From Betaproteobacteria bacterium (GTDB taxonomy: Bacteria; Pseudomonadota; Gammaproteobacteria; Burkholderiales; Rhodocyclaceae), in the NCBI GenBank assembly GCA_009779265.1, contig WREP01000005.1, positions 13,478 to 77,477 on the forward strand: a stretch of DNA of 64,000 bases, read 5' to 3'. A program made the translations under genes and the position numbers. Each line of letters starts with the position of its first letter. Position 1 is the stretch's first letter. Below the pieces are notes generated by a model. The model ran no database searches. It saw nothing but the letters and a program-made list of their open reading frames with translations, and was not told the DNA's origin. Below, in pieces: positions 13,222-16,287 of this stretch.

Positions 13222-13692
13222 TTACTTGAAGAGCGCATGGTGCGCAATGAGAGCCGTAGTCGGGTACGTGAGAGCTACGATGACCGTACAAAAAATACCT
13301 TGCTTTTGCGACAACCACGCTTGAGATGACACCACATACTGAAACCAGATCCACGTGACGGCAAGCAGGACAATCAGACCCGCCAGTGCGGAATGAAGTG
13401 AAGTGGAACTGGCCGCGCCCCAAGTGATACCGAAAATGATGGCAGCCAATACAGCGACGAAAGTACTGGTTGATTGGGAGGTGGAGCCAGCCGGTGAAGG
13501 CCGGGCTACTTCTTCCCAAATGGCTCCAGGCAGGAAGCCAAGCGTCGCGAAGAGGATAGCCTGGAGGCCGTTAAACCAAGGGAAGAAATAAACCAGCAGG
13601 AGCGCTCCGAGGCTGCTGACGGCCAAACACAAAACGATACGCCACCACAGCAACAGGCCACCGACTATACCCGCCACATCGTAGAAGTGCAT
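13222..13692 (-). CDS. Hypothetical membrane protein (156 aa, multiple hydrophobic segments)
   Basis: ATG at 13692, 19 nt after the ahpF stop; strongly hydrophobic; AT-richer than its flanks; no family recognised. Confidence 0.65.
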   Translation of the reverse strand: MHFYDVAGIVGGLLLWWRIVLCLAVSSLGALLLVYFFPWFNGLQAILFATLGFLPGAIWEEVARPSPAGSTSQSTSTFVAVLAAIIFGITWGAASSTSLHSALAGLIVLLAVTWIWFQYVVSSQAWLSQKQGIFCTVIVALTYPTTALIAHHALFK

Positions 13693-13711: not shown

Positions 13712-15253
13712 CTAACTGCGAACCAGATAATCAAATGCCGACAGCGAAGCGGTGGCGCCGGAGCCCATGGCAATGATGATCTGCTTGTAGGGCGTGATCG
13801 TGCAGTCGCCAGCGGCGAAGACGCCGGGCAGCGAGGTGTGGCCCTTGGCGTCGATGACGATTTCGCCGGAGGGCGAGAGTTCGAGCGCGCCTTGCAGCCA
13901 TTCGGTGTTGGGCAGGAGGCCGATCTGGACGAAGATGCCTTCCAGTTCGAGGCGCTTGATTTCGTTGCTGACGAGATCTTGATAAGCGATGCCGTTGACC
14001 TTCTCGCCGTCGCCGGTGACTTCGATGATCCGCGCCGGTTTGATGACGCTGACGTTGGGCAAACTGTTGAGCTTGTTTTGCAGCACGGCGTCGGCGCGCA
14101 GGGTGTCGCGGCGGTGGAACAGGGTGACATGGCCGACGATGCCGGCGAGGTCGATGGCCGCTTCGACGCTGGAATTGCCGCCGCCGATCATCGCCACCCG
14201 CTTGCCCTTGAACAGCGGGCCGTCGCAGTGCGGGCAGAAGCAGATGCCCTTGGCCTTGTATTCCTTTTCGCCGGGCACGTTCATTTCGCGCCAGCGGGCG
14301 CCGGTGGCGAGAATCACCGTTTTCGATTTCAGGATCGCGCCGCTTTCCAGGTGCACTTCGACCAGTTCGCCCGGCGTCAGTTTGGTGGCGCGTTGCAGGG
14401 TCATCACATCGACGCCGTAGTGTTTGACGTGCTGTTCCAGCGCCGCCGCCAGCTTCGGCCCTTCGGTTTCCTTGACCGAGATGAAATTTTCAATGCTCAG
14501 GGTATCCAGCACCTGGCCGCCGAAACGCTCGGCCAGCACGCCGGTGCGGATGCCCTTGCGCGCGGCGTAGATGGCCGCCGCGGCGCCGGCCGGGCCGCCG
14601 CCGACGACCAGCACGTCGAACGGCGCTTTTTTGCCCAGTTCTTCGGCGGCGCGGGCGGCGGCGCCGGTGTCGAGCTTGGCCAGGATTTCCTCGACCGTCA
14701 TCCGGCCCTGACCGAATTCCGCGCCATTCAGATAGACGATCGGCACGGCCATGATCTGGCGGCTGTTCACTTCGTCCTGGAACAGCGCGCCGTCGATCAT
14801 CGTGCAGCTCACGCCCGGGTTGAGCACGGCCATCAGATTGAAAGCCTGCACGACATCGGGGCAGTTGTGGCAGGACAGCGAAATGAAAGCCTCGACCTGG
14901 AAGCGGCCCGACAAGTTCTTGATCTGCTCGATCAGCGCCGGCTCAAGCTTGGGCGGGTGGCCGCCGGTCTGCAAGAGGGCAAGGACCAGCGAGGTGAATT
15001 CGTGGCCTAGCGGCAGGCCGGCGAAGTGGATGCGCGGCGCTTCGCCGGGGAGGCCGATGGCGAAGGAGGGGCGGCGGGCGGCGTCGCCATTTTCGCGCAG
15101 GCTGATCTTGTCCGACAGGGCGGCGATGTCGGTCAGCAGGCCGCGCATTTCCTGGGCCTTGGCGCTGTCGTCGAGGGAAGCGACGAGTTCGATCGGGCGC
15201 TGCAATTTTTCCAGGTAGGACTTGAGTTGTTCCTTGATGGCGTCGTCGAGCAT
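13712..15253 (-). CDS. ahpF: Alkyl hydroperoxide reductase subunit F
   Basis: N-terminal domain CHNC, FAD motif GGGPAG, CPHCDG redox centre; follows ahpC. Confidence 0.95.
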
Positions 15254-15363: not shown

Positions 15364-15927
15364 TTAGATCTTGCCGACCAGATCCAGCGACGGCTTCAGG
15401 GTTTCGGCGCCTTCCTGCCACTTGGCCGGGCAGACTTCGCCGGGGTGCGAGGCGACGTACTGGGCAGCCTTGACCTTGCGCAGCAGTTCGGAGGCGTCGC
15501 GGCCAATGCCCAGGTCATGAATCTCGGCCACCTTGATCTCGCCTTCCGGATTGACCAGGAAGGTGCCGCGCAGGGCCAGGCCCGCTTCCTCGATCATCAC
15601 GTCGAAATTGCGGGTGATGGCGCCGGTCGGGTCGCCGAGCATGAAGTATTTGATCTTCTTGATGGTGTCGGAGGCGTCGTGCCAGGCTTTGTGGGTGAAG
15701 TGGGTGTCGGTCGAGACCGAATACACCTCGACGCCCAGCTTCTGGAACTCGGGGTAGAGATCGGCCATGTCGCCCAACTCGGTCGGGCAGACGAAGGTGA
15801 AGTCAGCCGGGTAGAAAAAGAACACGGACCACTTGCCCTTCAGATCGCTGTCGGAAACGCTGACGAACTGGCCATTGCGATAGGCTTGGGTGGCGAAGGG
15901 CTTGATTTTGCTATTGATGATGGACAT
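15364..15927 (-). CDS. ahpC: Alkyl hydroperoxide reductase subunit C (2-Cys peroxiredoxin)
   Basis: 187 aa from ATG 15927; FTFVCPTE and GEVCPAKW motifs; GGAG ribosome-binding site. Confidence 0.97.
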
Positions 15928-16007
15928 GTGAGGTTTCTCCAAGTGGTTGGTGGTGGGCTGCTCAAGTGAGACAAGTGCATAGTAGGACCAAGTCAGTAAT
16001 TGCGCCA

Positions 16008-16044
16008 ATTGATTGACTAAATTTTCCGCATAGCAAGCGGCTAT
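16008..16044 (-). promoter_or_regulatory. OxyR-like binding site upstream of ahpC
   Basis: Minus strand reads ATAG-N7-CTAT-N7-ATTT-N7-CAAT; the first half matches the OxyR ATAG-N7-CTAT consensus exactly. Confidence 0.7.
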
Positions 16045-16193
16045 TGCTGGCTGGTCTGGGTTTGAGCATCGGCGCCGGGGGGCGAGACCGAAGTCCTCGT
16101 TTGCCGGCGGGTTCCATCGCCCATATTACCTAATCCAAAAGTGCTATTTCGGCGCTTGCATTGGGACTAGGGTTTATCCATCCACACTTTCAC

Positions 16194-16207
16194 TTGATGC
16201 GTATCAA
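16194..16207 (+). promoter_or_regulatory. FNR/Anr-family box of the nap promoter
   Basis: Perfect TTGAT-gcgt-ATCAA; AATAAT -10-like hexamer at 16231-16236 fits class II spacing. Confidence 0.85.
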
Positions 16208-16287
16208 GTCGTGCCTTCGGCGCGGATGGGAATAATAACGCCCCGTGAGTCCTTGCCCCCCACTGTTTGCGGAAGGAATTAAACCCA

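Follow-up and report, generated by a model that had tools for sequence, protein, structure and literature searches.

An AhpF with a predicted NADPH-type nucleotide site in a bacterium of the Rhodocyclaceae

AhpF is the textbook NADH:peroxiredoxin oxidoreductase, and to our knowledge it is driven by NADH in every bacterium in which it has been studied. In AhpF of the NADH type, a glutamate at the end of strand β2 binds the hydroxyl groups of the adenosine ribose and repels a 2'-phosphate; the loop after β2 is the classical position at which Rossmann-type domains discriminate between NAD and NADP. The nucleotide pool that pays for the scavenging of H2O2 shapes the links of oxidative stress to catabolism and biosynthesis. 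In vitro, E. coli AhpF prefers NADH whereas E. coli TrxB, a thioredoxin reductase (TrxR), prefers NADPH (PMC4960239). The signature of NADPH-dependent TrxR combines GxGxxA with HRRxxxR (PMC5627308, PMC10880999), and its HRRD motif is selective for the 2'-phosphate of NADPH (PMC5627308). Here we describe the ahpF gene of a Betaproteobacteria bacterium assigned to the Rhodocyclaceae (GCA_009779265.1), which lies on the minus strand at 13712..15253 of a 64,000-nucleotide stretch of contig WREP01000005.1 (the window). This gene most likely records a switch from NADH to NADPH or, short of that, an added capacity to use NADPH, because the glutamate is replaced by the His-Arg-Arg of TrxR in a change that is recent, confined to one clade, kept within that clade and paralleled by convergent changes elsewhere.

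The nucleotide site of the window AhpF

Two motifs set the protein apart. The second dinucleotide fingerprint reads GGGNSS (G357-S362; minus strand, 14168..14185; codons GGC GGC GGC AAT TCC AGC), with serine in place of the last glycine, and the loop right after β2 reads HRRDTLR (H380-R386; minus strand, 14096..14116; codons CAC CGC CGC GAC ACC CTG CGC), so that both motifs named in the initial annotation of this DNA are present codon by codon on the minus strand. At the aligned site E. coli AhpF (4o5q) has GGGNSG...HVTLLEFAPEMKAD, and its EFAPEMK stands against HRRDTLR (phmmer). The motifs of the window protein contain five changes: G362S, L379F, E380H, F381R and A382R. In an AlphaFold2 model, β1 comprises residues 352-356, the fingerprint helix residues 360-370 and β2 residues 375-379, after which comes the loop HRRDTLRAD; β3 (401-404) and β4 (407-414) follow. 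HRRDTLR is predicted to form the pocket that takes up the 2'-phosphate of NADPH.

The closest counterpart of the new loop is found in the same genome. HRRDTLR aligns with HRRDKLR of the resident TrxB and thus has the HRRxxxR of NADPH-type TrxR. Over the aligned place, where TrxB reads HVTLIHRRDKLRAE, 11 of 14 residues are identical and the three differences are conservative, in two proteins whose overall identity is 34%. The initial annotation had compared the whole basic motif, HRRDxxR, to that of TrxB. This applies to HRR, which is new, but not to the last arginine (R386), which is ancestral, all NADH-type AhpFs examined having Arg or Lys at this position. Likewise, the glycine of the fingerprint is lost as had been claimed, but the result is GxGxxS and not the GxGxxA of TrxB. 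The two concerted changes that had been proposed are real, yet they consist of five substitutions in the motifs plus about seven more that are specific to the lineage and lie in the same domain.

Apart from this site the protein has all the features of its family. It is of full length (513 residues, the stop codon lying within the coordinates), scores 773.7 bits against the AhpF model TIGR03140 (cut-off 502.9) and covers positions 1-514 of the 515 model positions. It aligns end to end with the AhpF proteins of E. coli and Salmonella (4o5q, 1hyu; E ~1e-213 in phmmer), and its residues 1-200 match the structure of the isolated N-terminal domain (1zyn, E = 5.8e-74). The AlphaFold2 model, built on an alignment of 54 AhpF sequences, has a mean predicted local distance difference test (pLDDT) score of 90.4; its top Foldseek matches are E. 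coli AhpF (4xvg, 4o5q), then Salmonella AhpF (1hyu), and TrxR structures match as well. Read in translation, the N-terminal domain, a tandem thioredoxin fold, carries the redox centre CHNC (C128, C131; minus strand, 14861..14872), which hands electrons to AhpC, and the fingerprint for binding of flavin adenine dinucleotide (FAD) is GGGPAG (G218-G223; minus strand, 14585..14602). The redox-active disulfide of the TrxR-like half, read in the DNA codons, is CPHC (C340, C343; minus strand, 14225..14236). C128, C131, G218, G220, P221, A222, C340, P341, H342 and C343 are invariant among the 54 aligned AhpFs. The assembly (2.5 Mb in 75 contigs) contains a single AhpF, the next-best match being its own TrxB, and since this AhpF is the only one, turnover of AhpC depends on it. 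By every structural criterion tested the window protein is a member of the AhpF family, and it departs only from the NADH-type site of characterised AhpFs. Because it has neither the GxGxxG fingerprint nor the acidic residue at the end of β2 that make up this site, it would properly be filed as an AhpF variant rather than as a standard NADH:peroxiredoxin oxidoreductase.

Origin and distribution of the substituted site

The residues that were replaced hardly vary among close relatives. In 182 of these, position 362 is glycine in 182, position 380 is glutamate in 181 and position 381 is phenylalanine or tyrosine in 181; arginine occurs at position 382 in at most 1 of the 182. In protein surveys, which listed the best 120 of 8000 scored candidates, GGGNSS together with LFHRRD was found among the best 120 matches in 5.8 billion protein clusters only in the query and in two metagenome proteins with 90-91% identity to it (P0003, P0004). 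The other matches among these 120, from 85% down to 79% identity, combine GGGNSG with LLEFADTLRAD or a near variant and come from Azonexus, Dechloromonas, Zoogloea, Aquaspirillum and Rivihabitans. A search with residues 345-395 alone added one clade member, the fragment P0121, among the matches listed, so that the carriers of the HRR variant among the listed matches are the window protein (P0001), P0003, P0004 and P0121, the last three all metagenome proteins with 90-91% identity to the first. The HRR pattern is not a product of chance. P0003 comes from the IMG metagenome 3300009784, which was sampled from hindgut segment P4 of a higher termite, Embiratermes neotenicus (PMC7800795), and P0004 is the NCBI entry MCL2635891.1, named 'MAG: Betaproteobacteria bacterium' (MAG, metagenome-assembled genome). 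The fourth member, P0121 (L027:1-1515), is split into two open reading frames (ORFs) of 199 and 300 residues on a 1.8-kb contig; this ahpF is either frameshifted or mis-assembled. Close relatives of the window protein (P0018, P0129, P0154) bear the automatic annotation 'NADH-dependent peroxiredoxin subunit F'.

A maximum-likelihood tree of 65 AhpFs, computed without position 362 and positions 378-387, groups the three HRR proteins together with 100/100 support. Their clade lies within a larger one of eight sequences (100/96), in which the remaining five are of the NADH type, and is nested within the NADH-type AhpFs of Azonexus, Dechloromonas and Zoogloea. The change is recent, derived and confined to one lineage. 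The window shares its gene order with two NADH-type loci, L025 and L026 (of P0006, an Azonexus sp., and of P0005): napA and napD lie on one strand and are followed, on the opposite one, by ahpC, ahpF and the genes for a lipid A acyltransferase and a carbamoyltransferase. As these NADH-type loci have the same synteny and NADH-type proteins surround the clade in the tree, the change arose in place and not by gene transfer; on the same grounds, the horizontal acquisition of a different ahpF was rejected.

The codons record how the residues were exchanged. Glu to His (GAA to CAC) and Phe to Arg (TTC to CGC) took two nucleotide changes each, and Gly to Ser is GGC to AGC. As CAC CGC CGC GAC is identical in ahpF and the resident trxB, with 16 consecutive nucleotides matching, the motif might have been copied by a very short gene conversion from trxB, which would concern its origin and not its function, or ahpF and trxB might have been joined in assembly; a hybrid ORF of the two on the metagenome contig L038 shows that such joins occur, at least in assemblies. 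However, the shared codons are the preferred codons of a GC-rich genome, the flanking sequence follows the ahpF lineage, and neither G362S nor the changes at 402-427 resemble TrxB. A chimera is contradicted by four independent assemblies, all of which carry the motif and which differ from one another at synonymous sites; this effectively excludes an assembly artefact. We regard an origin by conversion or false joining as barely credible; conversion was set aside as neither provable nor needed.

The substitutions in the two motifs are part of a larger set. At eighteen positions the HRR clade has a fixed residue that no more than 2% of the 182 relatives share, and 12 of these positions fall into residues 355-427 (V355M, G362S, E380H, F381R, A382R, T402S, S406P, Q408R, T409I, T410I, A423 and R427L). 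The binomial probability of this clustering is 5.5e-7, and 1.5e-4 if the nucleotide domain is preset as residues 322-444. Several of the replaced residues are nearly invariant in the relatives (Val355 in 181, Thr409 in 180, Thr410 in 177 and Arg427 in 179 of 182). Strand β3 and the start of β4 (S402-I410; minus strand, 14024..14050) contain T402S, S406P, Q408R, T409I and T410I, each shared by all members of the HRR clade and present in no more than 0.5% of the relatives. From the Rossmann topology, the C-terminal end of β3 (401-408) should adjoin the end of β2, and because of this expected proximity Q408R and S406P may be part of the same pocket. At L427 (minus strand, 13973..13975) this domain has lost a basic residue, in a change specific to the lineage.

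Rates of substitution complete this picture. For the NAD(P)H domain, comparison of the window gene with its Azonexus counterpart gives a nonsynonymous divergence (dN) of 0.102; two NADH-type genes at similar synonymous divergence (dS) give 0.040. Within the HRR clade dN/dS is 0.17-0.24 at a dS of 0.12-0.22, and 0.17 for the nucleotide domain alone, and the motif is unchanged. A burst of amino acid change was thus followed by purifying selection on the new site, which is being maintained, as the low dN/dS within the clade and the unvaried motif show. These data bear on the alternative that function did not change at all, that the substitutions represent neutral or compensatory drift in a gut-associated lineage with a small genome, and that NADH is still preferred. 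The genome is indeed small (2.5 Mb), and lineage substitutions also occur outside the pocket. Drift, however, would have had to replace positions that are invariant or nearly so in 182 relatives, by two nucleotide steps per codon, and to reproduce a known functional motif rather than random residues, which was then conserved within the clade at a dS of ~0.2 and a dN/dS of ~0.2; moreover, no way is known in which the fold of this protein could favour NADH without the glutamate. Such drift we consider very improbable.

The survey of HRRxxxR across AhpF proteins that the initial annotation had proposed yielded, besides the one tight HRR clade among NADH-type orthologues, a second and independent group. 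The AhpFs of Sutterella and other Sutterellaceae form a clade, represented by 20 sequences in the tree with 100% support, which lacks the NADH-type glutamate throughout, as a search with a Sutterella AhpF as query showed (P0350-P0369, P0371, P0379, P0381, P0385; loci L008, L009, L010, L015, L028, L042, L043). Its protein clusters include one with 1202 members and one that bears the name Sutterella parvirubra. In place of the glutamate and its neighbours the clade carries HRR, QRR, QRG, QRS, RRG or QSP. Most members keep GGGNSG and two have the TrxR-type fingerprint GGGNSA. Many lack Arg or Lys at position 386, and Arg or Lys at 427 is kept. R427L and K454Q were therefore rejected as general partners of the switch, position 427 being basic in the Sutterella clade and both changes being specific to the HRR lineage. 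Among 73 AhpFs, position 362 is other than glycine solely in lineages without the glutamate, namely serine in the HRR clade and alanine in two proteins of the Sutterella clade, one of which belongs to the S. parvirubra cluster. The Sutterella-clade proteins are of full length, adjoin ahpC and are all annotated simply as AhpF; among the matches listed, none of them bears the label 'NADH-dependent'. No study of a Sutterella AhpF was found in the searchable full-text literature, which leaves subscription-only papers outside its reach.

The glutamate has been lost in further lineages, with QSR in a relative of the Thiobacillus type and QSR, QRN and VRS in deep branches. The Thiobacillus-type case, P0152 (516 residues, on a contig of 279 kb), reads LLQSRETLRAD among NADH-type relatives, an independent loss with Ser-Arg next to it. 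P0376 (LLQFDPELRAD) shows the change from Glu to Gln alone. In all, the tree requires at least four independent losses, a count that was the same in all 200 bootstrap trees used, and the approximately unbiased (AU) test rejects descent of the HRR and Sutterella clades from a single origin (p = 1.5e-53). On this phylogenetic evidence, loss of the glutamate is convergent. In four of five independent contrasts it goes with an Arg or Lys within the two positions that follow, and the reverse is never seen (sign test p = 0.125).

A degenerate DNA pattern (exact AAIDLAG, eight codons, then His-Arg-Arg/Ser) was searched in one genome each of 185,579 species and gave 15 matches, only 4 of them in AhpF, all Sutterella- or Sutterellaceae-like. 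In metagenome contigs it gave 17 matches, 5 of them in AhpF: the contig of P0004, three Sutterella types and one AhpF/TrxB hybrid. The latter, L038:4857-6672, lies on a human-gut metagenome contig of 2.9x coverage, where one frame joins the N-terminal domain and the FAD part of a Sutterella-type AhpF to the C-terminal part of a typical TrxB (HRRDTFRAEPIL...GHKPNTDLF...AAGDVQD...YRQAVTSA), with the junction exactly at the conserved fingerprint. At such low coverage the probable explanation is that ahpF and trxB were falsely joined in assembly; a genuine ORF of this kind would be a naturally occurring hybrid of AhpF and TrxR.

Cofactor preference

In an AhpF that is otherwise ordinary and intact, a nucleotide site of the NADH type would have been converted into one of the NADPH type. 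By the exchange of Glu-Phe-Ala for His-Arg-Arg, together with the pre-existing Arg386, the protein would reproduce the HRRxxxR clamp with which low-Mr TrxR holds the 2'-phosphate. The phosphate-repelling glutamate is gone, and His380, Arg381, Arg382 and Arg386 are predicted to hold the 2'-phosphate as they do in TrxR. Electrons would then pass from NADPH to FAD, C340/C343, C128/C131, AhpC and finally to the peroxide. With NADPH preferred over NADH, this one protein would correspond in function to the pair of TrxR and thioredoxin, or to the plant NADPH-dependent thioredoxin reductase C (NTRC). We infer this change of kinetic preference from which residues have changed, where in the fold they lie, how the changes are distributed over the phylogeny and how well they are conserved. 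Every comparative test that was run points in the same direction, in support of the switch to, or gain of, NADPH use that the initial annotation had put forward.

Several observations weigh against this conclusion. The fingerprint GGGNSS ends in serine, so that the change leads away from glycine yet does not arrive at the residue of TrxR. In the Sutterella clade the site takes other forms (QRG, QRS, QSP) and Arg386 is often lost, so that no single motif defines the class. The link between loss of the glutamate and gain of Arg or Lys is suggestive, five contrasts being too few to reach significance. The motif is clearly rare, but the numbers given above are a lower-bound impression and not a census, since the DNA pattern is strict and the protein listings contain the best matches only. 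Finally, side chains of histidine and arginine do not exclude NADH, and both nucleotides could be used.

The last point leads to the alternative of dual specificity, in which efficient use of NADPH was gained, NADH is still used well and either pool feeds peroxide reduction. As is generally known from the engineering of Rossmann folds, loss of an acidic residue and gain of basic residues typically relax specificity before they invert it; GxGxxS is intermediate between the fingerprints with G and A, and partial versions of the site, QFD and QSP, occur in other AhpF lineages. On the other hand, the window protein copies the full HRRDxLRA of TrxR, a family that is selective for NADPH through this motif (PMC5627308), and about seven further lineage-specific substitutions in the same domain are more than mere relaxation seems to need. 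Dual specificity is conceivable, but we think it unlikely, and a clear preference of the window AhpF for NADPH is in our judgement probable.

In the searchable full-text literature, with the same restriction as above, no characterised NADPH-type AhpF was found, so that the novelty assumed in the initial annotation holds as far as this literature goes. What stands as new, relative to the literature reached, would be an AhpF with an NADPH-type site; the kind of enzyme itself is known. If the preference for NADPH is true, a natural AhpF would demonstrate that cofactor choice is evolvable in this family and connect the AhpF solution with that of TrxR and NTRC. With an NADH-type orthologue that is 85% identical and occurs in the same neighbourhood, the window gene would form a clean pair in which to dissect what determines cofactor specificity. 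A more far-reaching version, which we advance only tentatively and hold to be doubtful, is that the switch from NADH to NADPH is adaptive and complete and was made repeatedly by gut betaproteobacteria, independently in a termite-gut relative of Azonexus and in the abundant Sutterella clade of animal guts. If so, peroxide defence in microoxic guts would be uncoupled from the respiratory and fermentative NADH pool, and the lineage, given its 85% identical NADH-type orthologues, would provide a natural minimal-mutation series for the rewriting of cofactor specificity in flavoenzymes of the TrxR fold. The independent and much larger Sutterella clade suggests relevance to common commensals of the human gut.

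Gene neighbourhood and known systems

The partner of AhpF is encoded next to it. ahpC (minus strand, 15364..15927, stop codon within the coordinates) lies 113 nucleotides upstream of ahpF on the same strand and specifies the 2-Cys peroxiredoxin of 187 residues that AhpF reduces. Its product scores 345.9 bits against TIGR03137 (cut-off 272), contains FVCPTE and EVCPAKW with the peroxidatic and the resolving cysteine, and is 91-92% identical to AhpC of the NADH-type, Azonexus-like loci L025 and L026. Between ahpC and napD-napA, the latter for a periplasmic nitrate reductase, is a divergent intergenic region of 340 nucleotides (15928-16266); the back-to-back arrangement is kept in L025 and L026. 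Downstream of ahpF, an ORF for 155 very hydrophobic residues (minus strand, 13222-13689; MHFYDVAGIVGG...) without a Pfam match occupies a gap of ~640 nucleotides to the lipid A acyltransferase gene. As this spacing is just 59-136 nucleotides in the related loci L023, L025 and L026, the ORF looks like a lineage-specific insertion of a gene for a small membrane protein.

Among the known systems, the AhpF proteins of E. coli and Salmonella (4o5q, 4xvg, 1hyu) resemble the window protein in ~63% identity, in end-to-end architecture, in the N-terminal CxxC, the FAD site and the CxxC of the TrxR half, in the neighbouring ahpC and in membership of TIGR03140. They differ at the nucleotide site, where E. 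coli AhpF, which prefers NADH, has GGGNSG and LLEFAPEMK and the window protein GGGNSS and LFHRRDTLR. The Azonexus orthologues are still closer, 85% identical and in the same napA/napD-ahpC-ahpF neighbourhood, and they have kept the glycine and Glu-Phe. Low-Mr TrxB (the resident copy at L002:1516-2472, and E. coli TrxB) shares the fold of the C-terminal 300 residues at 34% identity, the loop HRRDxLRA after β2 apart from its variable position, and the GGGN with which both fingerprints start. Unlike the window AhpF, TrxB has no 200-residue N-terminal domain, reduces thioredoxin instead of AhpC, and reads GGGNTA and CATC, the latter against CPHC. The Sutterella clade (for example P0350, P0351, P0358 and P0385; L008-L010, L015) is alike in full-length AhpF, adjacent ahpC, loss of the glutamate and gut-associated betaproteobacterial hosts, and unlike in its independent origin and an identity of only 52-56% to the window protein.

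NADPH is already known as a driver of AhpC turnover. A laboratory chimera in which the N-terminal domain of AhpF was placed on E. coli TrxR was reportedly constructed by Reynolds and Poole (2000). For Helicobacter pylori, reduction of AhpC by TrxR and thioredoxin has been cited (PMC8139631). In NTRC of chloroplasts and cyanobacteria, a single polypeptide takes electrons from NADPH and delivers them to a 2-Cys peroxiredoxin by way of a TrxR module and the thioredoxin-fold module fused to it (PMC3454380), and so does the same job as is predicted for the window AhpF. The thioredoxin domain of NTRC, however, is C-terminal and single and not an N-terminal tandem, and NTRC evolved from TrxR and not from AhpF. 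The H. pylori route is a relay of two proteins and the chimera an engineered fusion, whereas the window AhpF would arrive at the use of NADPH by point substitutions within a native AhpF.

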